Source: an uncultured Candidatus Saccharibacteria bacterium
GTDB lineage: Bacteria > Patescibacteriota > Minisyncoccia > UBA6257
Length of the DNA stretch: 64,000 nt
Reading direction: 5' to 3'
Assembly: GCA_964618625.1 (NCBI GenBank)
Contig: CAZUBI010000001.1
Location: 396,901-460,900 of the forward strand
Part shown: in pieces, positions 8,248-21,888 of the stretch
Numbering within the stretch: position 1 is the first letter of the stretch
Layout of the letters: every line of letters begins with the position of its first letter
Position numbers and translations under genes: made by a program
Notes under the pieces: generated by a model
Databases searched by the model: none
What the model was told of the DNA's origin: nothing
What the model saw: only the letters and a program-made list of their open reading frames with translations

Positions 8248-9756
8248 TTAATTTACATAATATTTCTTTTTAATTTCTTTTTCATCTTCTTCTAAAAGGT
8301 TTTTGTATTTTTTTTGGGCTATTTTGTGTTTTTTCTTTAATTCATTTTGAGAAAGCAGGCTTATTTCTTTAGCCTCTTTTTCCATATATTTTTTATTGTT
8401 CTTTTTAGGATCATCTAATACTTGTTCTAATAAAATACTTAAGATTGCTCCAATTTTAGGTCCTGGTTCAATACCTAATGTTTTTATTATATCATTTCCA
8501 TTTATTTTTAATATTTTAAGAGATGGCTGTTGTCCCTCTAATTCTTTCAATACTTTTTCTACGCGGAATAAGAAATGACGAAGACGAAAAGGAAGAGCTT
8601 TGGGGCATCCAGATCCTATTCTATCAGCCTCTCTTACTTGAGCTAATTCCTGAATATTTTCTTTTCCGACTTTAACTAATAATCTGCGTATAGCAGCATC
8701 TGTAGTAATTTCTGGATCATAAACAAAACCATGGTAACGTACTAATTTGATAATCTTTTCTGATTTATTTTTTGGAAATTTTAAACGATTTAAAATGCGA
8801 GCTGTAATTTTAGCTCCTTGCCATTCATGGTTATAAAAAGTAGCGTCTATGCCTTCGCCTTCTTTAGTATATGGTTTTCCAATGTCATGAAATAAACTGG
8901 CTAATTTTACTTCTAAACCATATTCTTTTTTGCAGGCATATTTTAAAGAGCGCCAAGCATGTTCCCAAACAGTATAAATATGGTGTTTGTTTTGAGTTAC
9001 CCCAATGCCTTTTTCTAATTCCGGAATAATTTGTTTTAACAAATCATTTTCTTGCAAAAGAAAAATTCCTTTAACTGCTTGTGGAGAATTGATAATTTTG
9101 ATTAATTCATCGCGAATTCTTTCTTTAGAAATAAAAGCGAGAAGAGAAGCATTATCTTTTATAGCTTTTGATGTTTTGGGTTCTACTTGAAAATTTATCT
9201 CGCAGGCAAAACGAATAGCTCGCATTAAGCGTAAGCCATCTTCAGAAAATCGTTCTTTTGCATTTCCTACAGTTCTGATAAGTTTGTTTTGAAGATCTTT
9301 CTGGCCATCAAAAGGATCAACTAAAGTGTATTCCGTATTCTGTATTGCGTATTCTGTGTTTTTGGGTTTTATTGCCATTGCATTTATTGTAAAATCACGG
9401 CGGCTCAAGTCTTCTTCAATTGTTTTAGCGAATTCTATTTTATCAGGGTGGCGTTTGTCGCTGTATTTTCCTTCTTTTCTAAAGGTGGTAATCTCAATAA
9501 TTTTTAGAGCAACATTTTCTGAACCGGTTTTTACCGCAACAGTGCCGAATTCATTTTCATAAACACAATCAGGAAAAATTTTCTGGATTTGTTCGGGCTT
9601 GGCATTAGTAGTGATATCCCAATCTTTAGGATTTCTTTTTAATTTTTTGGTTTCACTCAAGACAAGATATCTAACACAACCCCCAACAATATAGGCTTCA
9701 AAATCAGCTTGATTAAGTTTTTCTATTATTTCCATCACTTCTAAAGGTATTTGCAT
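8248..9756 (-). CDS. cca: CCA-adding tRNA nucleotidyltransferase with HD domain
   Basis: 502 aa; Pol-beta NTase head GGCVRYLVL...DWDITT; HD motif LFHDIGK. Confidence 0.8.
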   Translation of the reverse strand: MQIPLEVMEIIEKLNQADFEAYIVGGCVRYLVLSETKKLKRNPKDWDITTNAKPEQIQKIFPDCVYENEFGTVAVKTGSENVALKIIEITTFRKEGKYSDKRHPDKIEFAKTIEEDLSRRDFTINAMAIKPKNTEYAIQNTEYTLVDPFDGQKDLQNKLIRTVGNAKERFSEDGLRLMRAIRFACEINFQVEPKTSKAIKDNASLLAFISKERIRDELIKIINSPQAVKGIFLLQENDLLKQIIPELEKGIGVTQNKHHIYTVWEHAWRSLKYACKKEYGLEVKLASLFHDIGKPYTKEGEGIDATFYNHEWQGAKITARILNRLKFPKNKSEKIIKLVRYHGFVYDPEITTDAAIRRLLVKVGKENIQELAQVREADRIGSGCPKALPFRLRHFLFRVEKVLKELEGQQPSLKILKINGNDIIKTLGIEPGPKIGAILSILLEQVLDDPKKNNKKYMEKEAKEISLLSQNELKKKHKIAQKKYKNLLEEDEKEIKKKYYVN

Positions 9757-10061: not shown

Positions 10062-11096
10062 ATGGCTGGATTAGTACGGAATAATAAATATTGTCAGTTG
10101 GAAAAAAGAGTTATTTTTCATATTGGCGGACAATATCGATTTTTATTAAAAGCGAAAAAGAATCTAAAATTATCTTGGTTTTTGTTCGCACATGAAATCA
10201 GAGTAAATCAAAGAACACTTAATGATTGGAAAAGAGAGAAATATTCTTTGCCTTACGATATTTTTCAAAAAATTTCTAAGATTACAAAATCGAAAATACC
10301 ACATGGAATAAAGATTAAAGAACCTTTTTGGTATGTTCGTAAAGGAGCTAAGCTTGGTGGTATTGCTGTTTATAAAAAATATGGAAAAATTGGTGGCGAC
10401 CCAGAGATACGAAAACAGAAATGGTTAGAGTGGTGGGAAAGAGAAGGTAAATATAATCCAAAAGAATATTTTGTAACAAAGGAAATTATTGCACCACAAA
10501 AAGGAGTTGATTTATCTGAATTTGTTGGAATTATGATTGGAGATGGCGGGATTACTAATAAACAAGTTGTTGTAACCCTTAATAATAAAACAGATAAACT
10601 TTATAGCGTTTTTGTAGAAGATCTTATAAATAGACTTTTTGGGGTAAAAGCAAGTATGAATATTAGAAAAGAAGAATCTGTTGTTAATATTACTGTTTCA
10701 CGCATACGCTTAGTAGCTTTTTGCAAATCGATAGGTCTTAAGATTGGAAATAAGTTAAAACAAAATTTGGATATTCCTGCATGGGTTAAAAAAGATAAAA
10801 GTTTTAAAGTATCTTGTTTAAGGGGTTTAGTAGATACAGATGGTTGTTTTTTTGTTGAGCGTCATAAAATTAATAAGAAAAAATACTGTTATCCTAGATT
10901 GTCTTTCGTAAGTTATTCTAAACAACTCCGTGCTTCAGCTTTTAAGATATTAAAAGAATTAGAATTTTCGCCTAACATTCGTAGTAATAGAAGCGTGCAA
11001 TTAGAAAATATAGCAGACATTAAAAAATATTTTAATTTAGTAGGTACTCATAATCCAAAACATAAAGAGAGATTTAGATTATTTTTGGAGGGGTAG
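10062..11096 (+). CDS. HTH (Xre-like) + double-motif LAGLIDADG homing-endonuclease-like protein
   Basis: 344 aa; LAGLIDADG-type motifs FVGIMIGDGGI and LRGLVDTDGCF with acidic residues retained; N-terminal HTH-like segment LSWFLFAHEIRVNQRTLNDWKREK. The 3' end overlaps the first 10 nt of tRNA-Ser(TGA). Confidence 0.7.
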   Translation: MAGLVRNNKYCQLEKRVIFHIGGQYRFLLKAKKNLKLSWFLFAHEIRVNQRTLNDWKREKYSLPYDIFQKISKITKSKIPHGIKIKEPFWYVRKGAKLGGIAVYKKYGKIGGDPEIRKQKWLEWWEREGKYNPKEYFVTKEIIAPQKGVDLSEFVGIMIGDGGITNKQVVVTLNNKTDKLYSVFVEDLINRLFGVKASMNIRKEESVVNITVSRIRLVAFCKSIGLKIGNKLKQNLDIPAWVKKDKSFKVSCLRGLVDTDGCFFVERHKINKKKYCYPRLSFVSYSKQLRASAFKILKELEFSPNIRSNRSVQLENIADIKKYFNLVGTHNPKHKERFRLFLEG

Positions 11097-11175
11097 GGAG
11101 TGGTTATCCCAAGCGGTTTTGAAAACCGCTATTCGTTTACACGGATCGTGGGTTCGAATCCCACCCCCTCCGCCA
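11087..11175 (+). tRNA. tRNA-Ser(UGA), long variable arm, CCA encoded
   Basis: GGAGGGGTAGGGAGTGGTTATCCCAAGCGGTTTTGAAAACCGCT...CGTGGGTTCGAATCCCACCCCCTCCGCCA. The ORF-track protein at 11100 reads through this tRNA as a false N-terminus. Confidence 0.85.
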
Positions 11176-12782: not shown

Positions 12783-12870
12783 GCCGGGGTGGTGGAATTG
12801 CTAGACACGAAGGATTTAAAATCCTTTGGAGGAATACTCCGTGCGGGTTGGAGTCCCGCCCTCGGCACCA
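12783..12870 (+). tRNA. tRNA-Leu(UAA), long variable arm, CCA encoded
   Basis: GCCGGGGTGGTGGAATTGCTAGACACGAAGGATTTAAAATCCTT...GCGGGTTGGAGTCCCGCCCTCGGCACCA. Confidence 0.85.
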
Positions 12871-12881
12871 TTTGAAATTTT

Positions 12882-13634
12882 ATGGGAGGTTTATTTACAA
12901 AACATATTAATCAAGATTTTTTTAAAACTTGGACATATGAAATGAGTTATGTTTTGGGTTATATTACTGCTGATGGTTGTATTACCGTGAGTAAAGATAG
13001 AACAAAACACCCTTTTTCATTAAATATTACTTCTATTGATAAAAAACATTTATATAGGATTAGAAAAGTATTAGAATCTGAGCATAAAGTTGGTAGGAAG
13101 TCAGCAGGGAGATTAAATGCTTTTGCCTATCAATTAGTCATACGCAACCCAGTTATAACTAGAGACTTGATGGATTTGGGAATATTACCTAGAAAGACTT
13201 ATAATTTAGGACCTATTGAAGTTCCGAAGAAATATTTCCCTGACTTTGTTCGTGGATTTTTTGATGGAGACGGAACAGTTTATATTTATAAAGTTAATGG
13301 AACACGACAAATTAAAGCTGGCTTCGTAAGTTCAAGTTTGCCTTTTATAACGAGATTTAATCAACAGCTTTGCGAAAGTCTAAATATTTCTATAAAATCT
13401 ATTCACAAAACAATTGATAGACGAAAAAATAGGATGATTCAATATAATATTTGTTTCTATATTGATGATTGTGAGAAATTGAGCGACTTTATGTATGGAA
13501 ATAATTCAACTTTATTTTTGCCTCGTAAATATAGAATTTTTAAGAAATGGAAGTCAATGAAAAGACGACATTATGTAAAGCAAAATTATCCCTCAAAAAT
13601 CGGCTGGCGGTTAAATGAAAAAGTCACTGTTTAA
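12882..13634 (+). CDS. LAGLIDADG homing-endonuclease-like protein (two motifs)
   Basis: 250 aa; motifs VLGYITADGCI and FVRGFFDGDGTV. It starts 12 nt after tRNA-Leu(UAA). Confidence 0.75.
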   Translation: MGGLFTKHINQDFFKTWTYEMSYVLGYITADGCITVSKDRTKHPFSLNITSIDKKHLYRIRKVLESEHKVGRKSAGRLNAFAYQLVIRNPVITRDLMDLGILPRKTYNLGPIEVPKKYFPDFVRGFFDGDGTVYIYKVNGTRQIKAGFVSSSLPFITRFNQQLCESLNISIKSIHKTIDRRKNRMIQYNICFYIDDCEKLSDFMYGNNSTLFLPRKYRIFKKWKSMKRRHYVKQNYPSKIGWRLNEKVTV

Positions 13635-19145: not shown

Positions 19146-20954
19146 ATGAATAAATTAGCTAAGTCTTTTTTAATAGTGTTTCTTCTTTTTTTGGCTCTTT
19201 CTTTACTTTTTTCTGCTATAGAAGGCACGTCTTTAGAGACAAAAAAAGTAAGTTTTTCTGAAGCAATTCAAGCTTTAAGAGAACAAGAAATAACAAAAAT
19301 TGTAATTCATCCTAGCCGCATTAATATTTTTCTTCAGGATGATACTGTTTTAATTACAGAGAGGGAAGTAAACGTTTCTTTTCCAGAAACACTTCAAAGT
19401 TTTGGTTTTTCTTCAGAAGAAATATCTTCTTTAAATATAGAAATTGAAAGTGATGGTGCGTCAGCTATCTTCTTTACTATAATATTGCCGATACTTATTC
19501 CGATTCTTTTAATAGGATTTTTGTTGTTCTACTCTCTTCGTCGTGCTAACCAAGGAGCAATGCAGATTTTTTCTTTTTCTCGTTCTAATATTAAATTATT
19601 TTCTCCTTCTAAAGACAGAATTACTTTTAAAGACGTGGCTGGTTTGAAAGAAAGCAAGGAAGAATTAAAAGAAGTTGTTGAGTTTTTAAAAACTCCAAAG
19701 AAATTCCATGATTTAGGAGCTAAAATTCCTCGTGGCGTTCTTCTAATGGGGCCGCCGGGCTCGGGAAAAACTTTATTAGCCCGTGCAGTGGCAGGGGAGG
19801 CTAAAGTACCTTTTTTTCATATTTCTGGATCAGAATTTGTTGAAATGTTTGTTGGAGTTGGCGCAAGCAGAGTGAGGGATACTTTTGCTACAGCTAAAAA
19901 AGCAGCCCCTTCAATTTTGTTTATTGATGAAATAGACGCTATTGGTAGAGTAAGAGGCGCTGGTATTGGTGGAGGTCATGATGAAAGGGAACAAACATTG
20001 AACCAGATTTTAGTTGAAATGGATGGTTTTGACAGAGATACTAAAACCATAGTTATTGCGGCGACAAATAGACCAGATGTTTTAGACCCTGCTTTATTAC
20101 GCCCAGGGCGTTTTGATAGACGGGTGATTTTAGATTTACCTAGTATTAATGATAGGGAAAAGATATTAGAAATTCATGTTAAGGGGAAAAGTTTGGCTCC
20201 ATTAGTTAATTTAAGAGAAATAGCAGAACGAACTCCAGGCTTTTCTGGTGCTGATTTAGCTAATTTAACAAATGAGTCTGCTATTTTGGCAGCTAGAAGG
20301 AATCAAAAAACTATTACTCAGAAGGAATTATTAGATTCTATAGAAAAAGTTATTTTAGGGCCAGAAAGAAGAAGTAGGGTTTTAACAAAGAAAGAAAAAG
20401 AAATTACTGCTTATCATGAAGCTGGTCATGCTTTAATATCCGCTTTACTTCCTAATACAGCTCGTGTAAGAAAAATTTCTATTATAACGCGCGGAAGAGC
20501 AGCTGGTTATACAATGCGAATGCCAACTGAAGAAAAATATATGAAAACTCGCTCAGAATTTTTAGATGATTTGTGTGCTCTTTTAGGAGGATATGCAGCT
20601 GAAGAGATTAAATTTAAAGAAATATCAACAGGTGCGGCGAATGATTTAAAAGAAGCAACAGATATAGCAAGAGGGATAGTAACTAAATATGGGATGAGTA
20701 AGAAAATGGGACCAATTTCTTTTGGTAGGACAGAAGAATTGATATTTTTAGGCAGAGATATTTCTACTGAGAGACAATATTCAGAAGAAACTGCAGCGAA
20801 AATAGATAAAGAAGTAATTAGTATTCTTAAAAAGTGTTACAATAACACAAAACGGTTACTAAAGAAAAATATAGATAAGCTGGAAAAAGTTACTAAAGAA
20901 TTGATGAAGAAAGAAACTTTGGAAAAAGAAGAATTTGAAAAATTGGTAAAGTAG
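19146..20954 (+). CDS. ftsH: ATP-dependent zinc metalloprotease FtsH
   Basis: 602 aa; N-terminal TM segments, AAA Walker A GPPGSGKT, second region of homology, zinc motif HEAGHAL. Confidence 0.95.
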
Positions 20955-20965
20955 CTAGTTTTTAT

Positions 20966-20994
20966 TTGTTCTTTAAAAATATTAGTGGTATAAT
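20966..20994 (+). promoter_or_regulatory. Putative promoter (TTGTTC-N17-TGgTATAAT) for the 21041 gene, overlapped by the inverted repeat ATGAAC-N8-GTTCAT (20993-21012)
   Basis: Extended -10 TGgTATAAT at 20986-20994. The 6-bp inverted repeat spans the predicted +1 region and is candidate operator-like. Confidence 0.35.
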
Positions 20995-21040
20995 GAACCT
21001 GGGACTGTTCATGAAATAGATATAATCTAAAGGTTTAATT

Positions 21041-21715
21041 ATGGCACGTTTTAAAGATCGCGAAAAAGCGATAATTTTGAGAAAGCAAGGGATGAGTTAT
21101 AGCCAGATAAAGAAGATTTTAAAAGTATGTAAAGGTACTTTAAGCACTTGGCTCAGGAATTATCCCCTTCCAGAAGCGAGAATAAGACAATTAAGGGATT
21201 GGAGTGAACAAAGAATTGAAAGATGCCGTGAAACAAAGAGAAAAAAGAAGGAAAGAAGACTAGAGGGTTTTTATCAAGAACAAAAAGAATTTATTTTTCC
21301 TTTTAATAAACGTGAATTATATCTCGCAGGTTTATTTCTCTATTGGGGAGAGGGAGCAAAAACTAGAATGACTGAATTGTCTATTTCCAATACAGATCCT
21401 TCTGTCATTAAACTTTTCCTTTTTTGGTTTACAAAATCTTTGCTAGTTCCAAAAGAAAGAATTAAAATTGGATTGCATTTGTATAAAGATATGAATATTA
21501 GTAAAGAGATAAATTTTTGGTCAGATATTTTGAAAATTCCTCTAAAACAATTTTATAAACCTTATATAAAAAAAAGTTTACTCAAATCTATAAATCATAA
21601 AGGAGGATTTGGTCATGGTACTTGTAATATAAGAGTTTCAGATGCAAGGCTTTCAGAGAAGATATTGATGGCTCTAAAAGTAATTAGCGATAAATATAAT
21701 AAAATGCGCACGTAG
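21041..21715 (+). CDS. HTH + divergent LAGLIDADG-like (LAGLFLYWGEGAK) protein
   Basis: 224 aa; N-terminal HTH-like KQGMSYSQIKKILKVCKGTLSTWL; single LAGLIDADG-like motif YLAGLFLYWGEGAK with E replacing D. The 3' end overlaps tRNA-Ile by 10 nt. Confidence 0.5.
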   Translation: MARFKDREKAIILRKQGMSYSQIKKILKVCKGTLSTWLRNYPLPEARIRQLRDWSEQRIERCRETKRKKKERRLEGFYQEQKEFIFPFNKRELYLAGLFLYWGEGAKTRMTELSISNTDPSVIKLFLFWFTKSLLVPKERIKIGLHLYKDMNISKEINFWSDILKIPLKQFYKPYIKKSLLKSINHKGGFGHGTCNIRVSDARLSEKILMALKVISDKYNKMRT

Positions 21716-21781
21716 CTCAGTGGTAGAGCAGGGTCCTTATAAGGCCAAGGTTCGCAGGTTCGATCCCTGCCGTGCGCACCA
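21706..21781 (+). tRNA. tRNA-Ile(UAU) (rare AUA-decoding anticodon), CCA encoded
   Basis: GCGCACGTAGCTCAGTGGTAGAGCAGGGTCCTTATAAGGCCAAGGTTCGCAGGTTCGATCCCTGCCGTGCGCACCA. Anticodon loop CTTATAA (U33, UAU, A37). Confidence 0.6.
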
Positions 21782-21783
21782 GA

Positions 21784-21857
21784 GGGTGATTAGCTCAGTG
21801 GTTTAGAGTGCTTCGTTGACATCGAAGAGGTCGCTGGTTCAATTCCAGCATCACCCA
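21784..21857 (+). tRNA. tRNA-Val(GAC)
   Basis: GGGTGATTAGCTCAGTGGTTTAGAGTGCTTCGTTGACATCGAAGAGGTCGCTGGTTCAATTCCAGCATCACCCA. Anticodon loop TTGACAT. Confidence 0.85.
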
Positions 21858-21888
21858 CAAAATTGCCTAGTATTAGGTGATTTTTTAT

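Follow-up and report, generated by a model that had tools for sequence, protein, structure and literature searches.

An endonuclease-like gene that ends inside tRNA-Ile(UAU)

Why would a bacterium of the candidate phyla radiation (CPR) carry a gene for a helix-turn-helix (HTH) and LAGLIDADG-like protein whose last codons lie within a tRNA gene? The question arises from a 64,000-nt stretch of the genome of an uncultured Candidatus Saccharibacteria bacterium (the whole stretch is called the window below; 32.6% G+C, 17 tRNA genes by ARAGORN), in which an open reading frame (ORF) of 224 aa runs 10 nt into the gene for tRNA-Ile(UAU). The explanation in which we place somewhat more than even confidence is that this locus has long been resident and belongs to a large family of homing-endonuclease-type cassettes, compact (~0.75 kb) and free-standing, which are lodged immediately 5' of tRNA genes. 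Sequence comparisons appear to favour such a cassette over a domesticated regulator by three features, namely its catalytic signature, the existence of empty sites, and the spread of its relatives over many tRNAs and phage arrays. Coordinates of all features are collected in Table 1.

A putative LAGLIDADG-type domain and its catalytic residues

Both the ORF and its motif YLAGLFLYWGEGAK are present in the sequence as an earlier note on this DNA had described them. The architecture proposed there, an HTH joined to a LAGLIDADG-like domain, stands by sequence profiles but not by curated models. For the HTH, the match of the window protein to Pfam HTH_23 is sub-threshold (residues 2-41, E 5.7e-5), but the same model is matched by 62 of 78 diverse family members with a best E of 1.3e-19, and a profile built from the 78 members also matches the PAI subdomain of Sleeping Beauty (E 2.8e-4). 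The AlphaFold (AF2) model, with a predicted local distance difference test score (pLDDT) of 86 over the full length and 88.5 over the C-terminal domain, places the HTH helices at residues 2-15, 20-27 and 31-37. Beyond this three-helix HTH, the model contains a single helix of 40 residues and an alpha/beta domain in which a long insertion precedes the last strand (~45 residues between the last two strands).

Among solved structures, the 78-member profile matches the second LAGLIDADG domain of I-DmoI best (E 1.7e-4); the alignment runs through the motif, where the family consensus 'lYwgEGaKt' falls on 'LYVAEGDKT' of I-DmoI, E104 on E117 and K107 on K120. Catalysis by I-DmoI requires E117, and K120 is a catalytic basic residue of the enzyme (PMC3384342). 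In this alignment the LAGLIDADG-type helix YLAGLFLYWGEG ends in E104 as the putative metal-binding acidic residue, and the basic residue beside the predicted active site is kept as K107. The helix thus shares with I-DmoI an ending of the type acidic residue-G-x-K (LYWGEGxK here, LYVAEGDK in I-DmoI). Both residues are conserved in at least 90% of the 78 distant members and are invariant among the orthologs, where 36 aligned sequences also leave G97, L100, Y101, G103, G105 and the loop NHKGGFGHGT unchanged. The wider loop INHKGGFGHGTC is invariant or nearly so among orthologs, but across the superfamily only its G193 is invariant, and its model confidence is low.

The note had taken the Glu of the motif for a replacement of the catalytic Asp. 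This is misleading, because the Glu aligns with E117, the native and essential catalytic Glu of I-DmoI (PMC3384342); since E117 is itself catalytic, a Glu at position 104 is no sign of inactivation. In WhiA, a domesticated relative that is not a nuclease, the equivalents of E117 and K120 are both lost (PMC3384342). We consider it likely from these alignments that the C-terminal part is a divergent LAGLIDADG domain with an intact catalytic signature. It has a single LAGLIDADG motif and therefore implies a homodimer, as for the homodimeric single-motif enzymes I-CreI and I-ShaI, the latter being a CPR rRNA-insertion enzyme that was shown to form a homodimer (PMC11270868).

Relatives beside many tRNA genes and in phage tRNA arrays

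Homologs of the window protein are numerous, with 2683 at E<=1e-3 in a collection clustered at 90% identity, which puts the ORF clearly beyond chance. The best 120 of them are 64-95% identical to it and almost all ~224 aa long, and the names among them include Pacebacteria, Nealsonbacteria, Staskawiczbacteria, Falkowbacteria and other Patescibacteria. When 1.84 billion representatives were searched with a profile, 5156 clusters (50% identity) were found at E<=1e-3 but only 174 at E<=1e-30, and we therefore distinguish a tight ortholog group, 50-95% identical within Patescibacteria, from the very large superfamily in which it is embedded. Public records name the members only 'helix-turn-helix domain-containing protein'.

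We placed 11 paralog representatives of ~30% identity to the query on their contigs, and a tRNA was found at the 3' end of the ORF in 8 of them: Arg-GCG, Pro-CGG, a CAT tRNA, Phe, Cys, two tRNAs cut by contig ends, and one antisense Gln. Among the other three, one has a tRNA 9 nt 5' of the ORF and two have no tRNA. In IMG/VR, 21 of 23 paralog loci lie within tRNA arrays, typically with a distance of 47-63 nt to the tRNA before them and of -15 to +10 nt to the one after; in the phage loci L220 and L221 the stop codon falls on tRNA nucleotides 8-10. GenBank phages gave no tblastn match to the ortholog itself. This is a large, undescribed family of compact HTH plus LAGLIDADG-type cassettes situated directly 5' of tRNA genes in phages and CPR bacteria.

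A GC-rich relative (P0180, 576 aa; L086 1497-3227 and L087 483-2213) contains three stretches matching the family profile, possibly fused or tandem copies, and the 3' end of its gene overlaps an antisense tRNA-Gln(UUG). In L213-L215 (2180-2381), 2 nt separate the paralog from an 85-nt tRNA-Cys(GCA)-like gene whose variable arm is long; a normal tRNA-Cys(GCA) comes next, and a tRNA-like 5' fragment stands 5' of the paralog.

Empty sites and tRNA fragments

When metagenomes were scanned with a pattern for tRNA-Ile(UAU), tRNAs of this type proved to be common, and nearly all of them have no cassette gene beside them. Several of the cassette-free loci are CPR-like: they share with carrier loci an FtsH or other flanking protein at 62-84% identity. 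In L106 the empty slot consists of the ftsH stop codon, 6 nt, tRNA-Ile(UAU) and then tRNA-Val(GAC), and in L126 and L135 there are 154 and 106 nt, respectively, between ftsH and the tRNA; L117, L111 and L144 are further examples. The presence or absence of the cassette at an otherwise conserved site is the polymorphism expected of a mobile element. The cassette is dispensable, and tRNA-Ile(UAU) does not need it, because CPR-like genomes have the same tRNA without the cassette.

Broken tRNA copies were found at several loci, beside cassettes or tRNA genes. In L057 (2657-2690) a resident allele of tRNA-Ile(UAU), which has a TGGTATAAT promoter of its own, is broken after A35 at the cassette border, and in L038 (6434-6467) the 5' half of a tRNA-Val(UAC) is likewise broken after A35. 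In L014 (6666-6701) a duplicated 5' part of the tRNA is fused to the end of the ORF, ~100 nt before the intact tRNA, and L001 (6797-6820) and L208 (122-148) hold further orphan or duplicated 5' fragments. A single fixed break at A35 was considered and weakened to 'anticodon arm', since a wider scan gave fragment ends at positions 26-39. Homing that turns tRNA-Ile(CAU) into the UAU type was rejected because the orphan 5' halves have T34 and not C34.

Some cassette-free CPR-like loci have a comparable feature just 5' of the intact tRNA-Ile(UAU), i.e., a tRNA-like 5' fragment made up of acceptor strand and D arm, followed by the shared sequence TTACCCGTCYGCC (L135 from 434-458 onward, L144 from 8451-8477 onward, L126 and L111). 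Rfam has no family for these fragments. The pattern scan also matched many tRNA-Ile(UAU)-like metagenome sequences (L101, L110, L118, L154, L170, L187 and L207) in which unrelated sequence follows CTTATA and which ARAGORN does not call as tRNA-Ile(TAT); these are probably intron-containing archaeal or eukaryotic genes.

Linkage and constraint in the ortholog group

For the orthologs we surveyed one genome per species, which yielded 247 relatives, and examined the best 80 loci (L001-L080), which span many CPR classes. ARAGORN finds tRNA-Ile(TAT) directly 3' of the gene in 76 of the 80, including L077, where the tRNA is inverted but still adjoins the gene. In the remaining four, the tRNA is broken by masked Ns (L079) or cut at a contig end (L004), or the contig ends at the gene (L010 and L080). 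The last two are uninformative and the first two can be counted, so that the linkage holds in 78 of 78 informative loci. An FtsH homolog adjoins the cassette in 55 of the 80 loci, either 5' on the same strand or 3' on the opposite strand, and tRNA-Val(GAC) follows tRNA-Ile(UAU) in many related loci, but not in all. In 25 loci a gene for an RluA-family pseudouridine synthase lies just 3' of the tRNA-Ile(UAU)/tRNA-Val pair, 0.2-1 kb from the tRNA; S1-like and L19 genes are also frequent neighbours.

The ortholog is strongly constrained. Its ratio of nonsynonymous to synonymous substitution rates (dN/dS) is 0.07-0.21, as compared with 0.03-0.13 for ftsH in the same genome pairs, and across 46 loci the mean pairwise identity of the cassette protein (55.5%) is close to that of FtsH (56.5%), with r = 0.54. 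The synonymous rates (dS) are ambiguous to compare owing to AT-biased saturation. Recent horizontal transfer of the ortholog was considered and not supported, as no pair of genomes has a cassette identity far above its FtsH identity. Because identity tracks that of FtsH without outliers and dN/dS is low, we regard the ortholog group as mostly vertical and strongly constrained.

Some of the results weigh against a homing-endonuclease-type cassette. The ortholog group looks mostly vertically inherited, which is unusual for a selfish endonuclease and fits domestication, and this pattern together with FtsH-like conservation would favour a domesticated regulator. No model in Pfam, NCBIfam or PHROGs recognises the C-terminal domain, PHROGs matching the HTH only; the window protein matches no Pfam LAGLIDADG family at E<=10, whereas Pfam models of this domain are matched by both of the remaining LAGLIDADG ORFs in the window, and among the 25 most frequently matched of the 51 families hit by the 78 members at E<=0.01 there is no LAGLIDADG family. 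Foldseek searches of the PDB with the full-length model or the C-terminal domain gave nothing significant and no LAGLIDADG match, the top matches being OmpA-like and IspF folds at a template-modelling (TM) score of 0.38. A search of the viral models in BFVD with the C-terminal domain did return a homing endonuclease and many intein-bearing proteins (probability 0.6-0.94, TM ~0.4), but with E values of 0.1-1. Finally, the cassette-linked tRNA keeps the same anticodon loop as the tRNAs at empty sites, which leaves self-immunity unexplained if the tRNA is the target.

The alternative that survives best, which we nevertheless regard as doubtful, is a domesticated, WhiA-like regulator that no longer cuts DNA. 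Such a protein would adjust the output of the operon of tRNA-Ile(UAU) (and tRNA-Val) through negative autoregulation at a palindromic operator, and it would be kept because mis-dosed U34 tRNA-Ile would cause stalling at AUA or misreading of AUG. Besides the FtsH-equal conservation, the vertical-like pattern and the low dN/dS, this explanation can draw on an operator that overlaps both promoter and ribosome-binding site (see below), on the tight junction between ORF and tRNA, and on the absence of a predicted terminator ahead of the tRNAs, between them and the ORF. There are precedents in WhiA, which autoregulates and has lost its nuclease, and in I-TevI, an active endonuclease that represses its own gene (PMC3384342). 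But the equivalents of the catalytic Glu and Lys, which are lost in WhiA, are kept superfamily-wide in the family described here, CPR-like genomes have the same tRNA without the cassette, and the tRNA appears to own a -10 element. Paralogs beside many different tRNAs and in phage arrays are a better fit to a mobile element.

A role of the ORF as a sensor of AUA codons, in which its translation would report the supply of tRNA-Ile(UAU), was also considered. ATA makes up 0.39 of the Ile codons in the ORF versus 0.23 in neighbouring genes, and it is enriched in 70 of 77 loci. However, A-ending Thr, Ala and Leu codons are equally enriched (odds ratios 1.9-2.1), and the G+C content at third codon positions is 0.31 in the ORF versus 0.41 in the neighbours. 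We rejected the sensor as an effect of composition, because other A-ending codons rise as much and third-position G+C falls; the higher AT content of the ORF was counted as a signature of mobility, as were the truncated tRNA 5' fragments beside cassettes.

Promoter and candidate operator of the cassette

The promoter that the note had proposed, TGgTATAAT at 20986-20994, is present, and it exceeds chance, given that most orthologous loci keep TTGTTC-N17-TGnTAtAAT at this distance from their ATG. In most of these loci TGnTAnAAT lies at -53 to -57 from the ATG, and in most Paceibacteria-type loci 'TTGTTCTTT' is conserved 17 nt 5' of the -10 box. A consensus scanner missed the promoter as its -35 score was too low.

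An inverted repeat, ATGAAC (20993-20998)/GTTCAT (21007-21012), had been noted over this promoter. It is present as placed but is at chance level: perfect inverted repeats of 6 nt, with loops of 3-12 nt, turn up in 19% of shuffled sequences and in 20% of all 61-nt segments of this DNA. The second arm of the noted repeat is not conserved, being absent in the close relatives L001 (82% identical), L002 and L005. The autoregulation suggested on this basis is plausible as an idea but was attached to the wrong repeat, since the conserved partner of ATGAAC is GGTTCAAT before the ATG. This start-proximal arm reads GGTTCAAT or GGTTCGAT in most relatives and GGTTTAAT here, a C-to-T variant common to the three closest relatives, and the two arms share the core (A/T)TGAAC.

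The spacing of the two arms is strongly conserved. GAAC-N32-35-GTTC is found in 41 of 81 upstream regions, compared with 0.002 expected per region, and the offset between the arms is 36-39 bp (mode 38) in 40 of 46 loci; in the window it is 38 bp to the GAAC at 20995. In most loci the GTTC keeps the position -8 relative to the ATG ('aaGGTTCAATTATG'), and the consensus of the ortholog upstream regions can be written as TTGTTCTTTnAAAA...TGnTAtAAT-GAACC...~30 nt...AAAGGTTCAATT-ATG. The 5' arm is directly next to the -10 box, except in distant lineages, where it is found between -35 and -10. Phage paralogs have (T/C)GAACC...GGAGGTTCGAtt-ATG (also written 'GGAGGTTCGAttATG'), and an inverted repeat TGAACC...GGTTCA(AT) that extends from the -10 box to the ribosome-binding site is found superfamily-wide. 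From this conservation in upstream regions we have a candidate operator in the window that overlaps the -10 box and the ribosome-binding site, with a 38-bp offset.

Instead of binding the encoded protein, the inverted repeat might act in RNA, as a hairpin in the 5' untranslated region that hides the Shine-Dalgarno sequence or stabilises the mRNA; we judge this to be quite unlikely. The 3' arm does cover the Shine-Dalgarno sequence, and some lineages (e.g., L053, L058 and L062) have long complementary arms. Complementarity at the inner positions +7 to +12 is 0.46-0.66 within loci as against 0.34-0.46 between loci, and mismatches compatible with G.U pairing outnumber those of the opposite kind by 60 to 30, but this asymmetry is confounded by the requirement for a Shine-Dalgarno sequence in one arm. 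Against a hairpin, positions +1 to +5 beside the core are only 29-49% complementary, and the invariant 5' core TGAAC abuts the -10 hexamer or sits between -35 and -10, which puts it upstream of or at the start of transcription. The spacing held at 36-39 bp suggests the geometry of a protein. With the 5' core no later than the expected start of transcription, and with a constant spacing, a DNA operator with two half-sites is favoured over an RNA hairpin.

A model for the cassette

Under the homing-endonuclease-type reading, the cassette would consist of its own promoter, a palindromic operator, and the ORF for a protein with an HTH and a single LAGLIDADG domain. The protein would dimerise through its LAGLIDADG helices, and its two HTHs, held ~60 Å out on the long helices, would bind the outer half-sites ~39 bp apart and thereby repress the cassette's own promoter, as for I-TevI. 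The centres of the half-sites, ~39 bp apart, are separated by ~130 Å; judging from the model, a LAGLIDADG dimer at the dyad with two 40-residue helices of ~60 Å each could fit the HTHs on the half-sites. Transcription of the tRNA would probably have two sources, read-through from the promoter of the cassette and a -10 element in the last ORF codons.

The 3' arm of the operator is also the T-loop box of tRNA genes, which in the tRNA-Val of the window reads GGTTCAATTCC. The same HTH may dock on the identical GGTTCRA box of the tRNA T-arm, and the nuclease core would then reach the anticodon arm. GGTTC lies 16 nt from the operator dyad, and G52 likewise lies 16 nt from tRNA position 35|36. A more speculative extension, to which we attach a low probability, is that the HTH reads the universal T-arm box GGTTCRA and that members of the family are generic 'tRNA-gene cutters' which strike the anticodon arm. 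The tRNA-Ile(UAU) lineage would then be an ancient gene-drive-like cassette that, over much of the CPR radiation, carried the UAU-type tRNA-Ile along or protected it, and that is now kept since its self-repressing promoter also doses the tRNA. The identity of the operator arm with the T-loop box, the equal 16-nt distances, and the tRNA 5' fragments broken at positions 26-39, twice exactly after A35, are consistent with this possibility. A wider mimicry of tRNA genes by the operator was rejected: among 75 operator/tRNA pairs only the GGTTC-on-GGTTC register stood out (0.288 matches versus a mean of 0.237).

The tRNA and its junction with the ORF

The tRNA itself is well supported, as ARAGORN calls a tRNA-Ile with anticodon TAT at 21706-21781 and the Rfam score is 64 bits, with a gathering score of 29 bits. 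The overlap of the ORF with this tRNA that the note had pointed out is confirmed. The anticodon loop is CTTATA(A/C/T) in all ~77 aligned orthologous tRNAs, and in ~31 of 77 orthologous loci the stop codon occupies tRNA nucleotides 8-10, as in the window, with a gap of 1-15 nt in most of the others. In the window, the anticodon region 21735-21744 is CCTTATAAGG, a perfect 10-bp palindrome centred between A35 and U36.

In addition to the TATAAT within the last codons of the ORF, TAnnnT-type hexamers are located 5-8 nt before the tRNA in many orthologous loci, and TATAAT stands 7-9 nt before the same tRNA in the cassette-free loci L117 and L144 and in the orphan of L057. Given the embedded TATAAT 5 nt before the tRNA and the TATAAT at cassette-free loci, the tRNA may be transcribed almost leaderless from a promoter inside the ORF.

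The UAU anticodon had been called uncommon in bacteria. This is correct for textbook bacteria (PMC3575796), but UAU is the anticodon at all CPR loci retrieved, and tRNA-Ile(UAU) genes were frequent in the metagenomes of the pattern scan. We found no tRNA with a CAT anticodon in the 64-kb window and no TilS-like neighbour among 693 flanking ORFs, neither of which speaks for the whole genome. In many other bacteria tilS, the alternative route to AUA decoding, lies just 5' of hpt-ftsH. The usual neighbour of the cassette/tRNA-Ile(UAU) pair is ftsH, and the likeness to the tilS-hpt-ftsH order may be a coincidence. Our search of the literature on CPR tRNA-Ile(UAU), tilS or the 224-aa protein yielded nothing relevant, and the handling of this tRNA in CPR bacteria has apparently not been studied so far.

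A factor acting on the tRNA, i.e., a LAGLIDADG-derived domain that binds pre-tRNA-Ile(UAU) in the manner of intron maturases, aids its folding, processing or wobble-base modification, and is kept in cis with its substrate, could account for the invariant adjacency, the strongly conserved loop of the orthologs and the RluA-family gene at 25 loci (LAGLIDADG maturases are a known RNA-binding offshoot), but it is very improbable in view of the same tRNA at cassette-free CPR loci, of paralogs with many tRNA species and in phage arrays, of an HTH and a palindromic DNA motif that point to DNA binding, and of the lack of similarity to any known tRNA-modifying enzyme.

Comparison with known systems

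The cassette resembles LAGLIDADG homing endonucleases in its presence/absence polymorphism at a conserved RNA gene. It differs from them in the N-terminal HTH on a 40-residue helix, the ~45-residue insertion before the last strand, the lack of a Pfam LAGLIDADG match, an ortholog group as conserved as FtsH, and a free-standing position beside tRNA genes rather than in rRNA introns or inteins. SegB of phage T4 is reportedly a homing endonuclease of the GIY-YIG type, encoded by a free-standing gene within the cluster of tRNA genes of the phage, in work attributed to Brok-Volchanskaya et al. 2008. Like SegB, the viral-contig paralogs (21 of 23 in arrays) are endonuclease-type genes lodged between tRNA genes; unlike SegB, they are LAGLIDADG-like and have a conserved palindromic element in the cassette, and the family reaches bacterial chromosomes, where one lineage is fixed beside a single tRNA species.

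The HTH-containing DNA-binding part of I-TevI is said, following Edgell et al. 2004, to bind an operator over its own promoter and so to bring about autorepression. The conserved inverted repeat over promoter and ribosome-binding site is the candidate counterpart here; it differs in being a symmetric pair of half-sites 38 bp apart and belongs with another nuclease family. WhiA (DUF199), which is conserved across a large bacterial clade and autoregulates, likewise combines a LAGLIDADG scaffold with an HTH (PMC3384342). Its organisation is different, with two degenerate LAGLIDADG domains and a C-terminal HTH instead of one domain and an N-terminal HTH, and its acidic and basic catalytic residues are lost, in contrast to E104 and K107. 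As for the tRNA, Mycoplasma mobile and other tilS-less bacteria have a tRNA-Ile(UAU) (PMC3575796), and the window tRNA, which folds into a cloverleaf, resembles that of M. mobile in being a bacterial tRNA-Ile that has the anticodon UAU to decode AUA; unlike in M. mobile, it is physically fused to an endonuclease-like gene.

If the cassette reading is true, more than 5,000 clusters (50% identity) would constitute a class of tRNA-gene-associated endonuclease cassettes in the tRNA arrays of jumbo phages and in CPR chromosomes. This would explain the small ORFs and truncated tRNA fragments strewn through the tRNA arrays of these genomes, as well as the persistence of an endonuclease gene under FtsH-level constraint beside one tRNA. 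It would also offer enzymes with long, tRNA-gene-specific recognition sites, and would link a family of selfish elements to the unusual AUA-decoding tRNA-Ile(UAU) of CPR bacteria.

Other features of the window and its relatives

Table 1. Positions of the cassette, its signals and neighbouring genes in the window
Feature	Position	Strand	Source
344-aa ORF, Pfam LAGLIDADG_3 (27 bits), two motifs IGDGG and VDTDG	10062-11096		
Two-domain LAGLIDADG gene, Pfam LAGLIDADG_3 and LAGLIDADG_1; phrog_4645 'endonuclease', E 2e-37	12882-13634		
ftsH, 602-aa ORF, conserved 5' neighbour	19146..20954	+	ORF list
-35-like hexamer TTGTTC	20966..20971	+	sequence
Extended -10 element TGGTATAAT	20986..20994	+	sequence
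Promoter-proximal half-site TGAACC, 5' arm of conserved inverted repeat	20994..20999	+	
GTTCAT, second arm of the earlier-noted repeat, not conserved	21007..21012	+	
Start-proximal half-site GGTTTAAT, overlapping Shine-Dalgarno AAAGG	21032..21039	+	
HTH and LAGLIDADG-like ORF, 224 aa	21041..21715	+	ORF list
N-terminal three-helix HTH, aa 2-41	21044..21163	+	Pfam HTH_23, AF2 model
Single long basic helix, aa 45-85, joining HTH to C-terminal domain	21173..21295	+	AF2 model, pLDDT >90
LAGLIDADG-type helix motif YLAGLFLYWGEGAK, aa 94-107, with E104 and K107	21320..21361	+	
Ortholog-specific conserved loop INHKGGFGHGTC, aa 184-195	21590..21625	+	ortholog alignment
TATAAT in last ORF codons (Tyr-Asn), 5 nt before mature tRNA 5' end; candidate tRNA promoter	21695..21700	+	sequence
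tRNA-Ile(UAU), anticodon 21738-21740, CCA encoded	21706..21781	+	ARAGORN, Rfam 64 bits
TAG stop of ORF, tRNA nucleotides U8-A9-G10	21713..21715	+	sequence
tRNA-Val(GAC), 2 nt 3' of tRNA-Ile(UAU)	21784..21858	+	ARAGORN, Rfam

The 224-aa gene had been counted as the third of its kind in this region. That is right in spirit, as two other LAGLIDADG ORFs of the window lie beside tRNAs, but neither is a detectable relative of the 224-aa protein. No paralog of the latter was found within the window by tblastn or by hidden Markov models of the family, and an hhalign comparison with ORF 12882 was uninformative. ORF 10062-11096 is situated between tRNA-Lys(CUU) and tRNA-Ser(UGA) (11087-11175), with its TAG stop on nucleotides 8-10 of the tRNA-Ser, and ORF 12882-13634 begins 12 nt after tRNA-Leu(UAA) (12783-12870).

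Among the relatives, one that carries the cassette is available in culture, in a Minisyncoccus/Microsyncoccus co-culture (L030). In L107 (metagenome contig Ga0209340_1001048) the ortholog, ~690 nt 5' of its tRNA-Ile(UAU), is intact only if TGA is read as Trp, with TGA at the conserved W37 and W102 positions, which points to a recoded (code-4-like) genome carrying the cassette.

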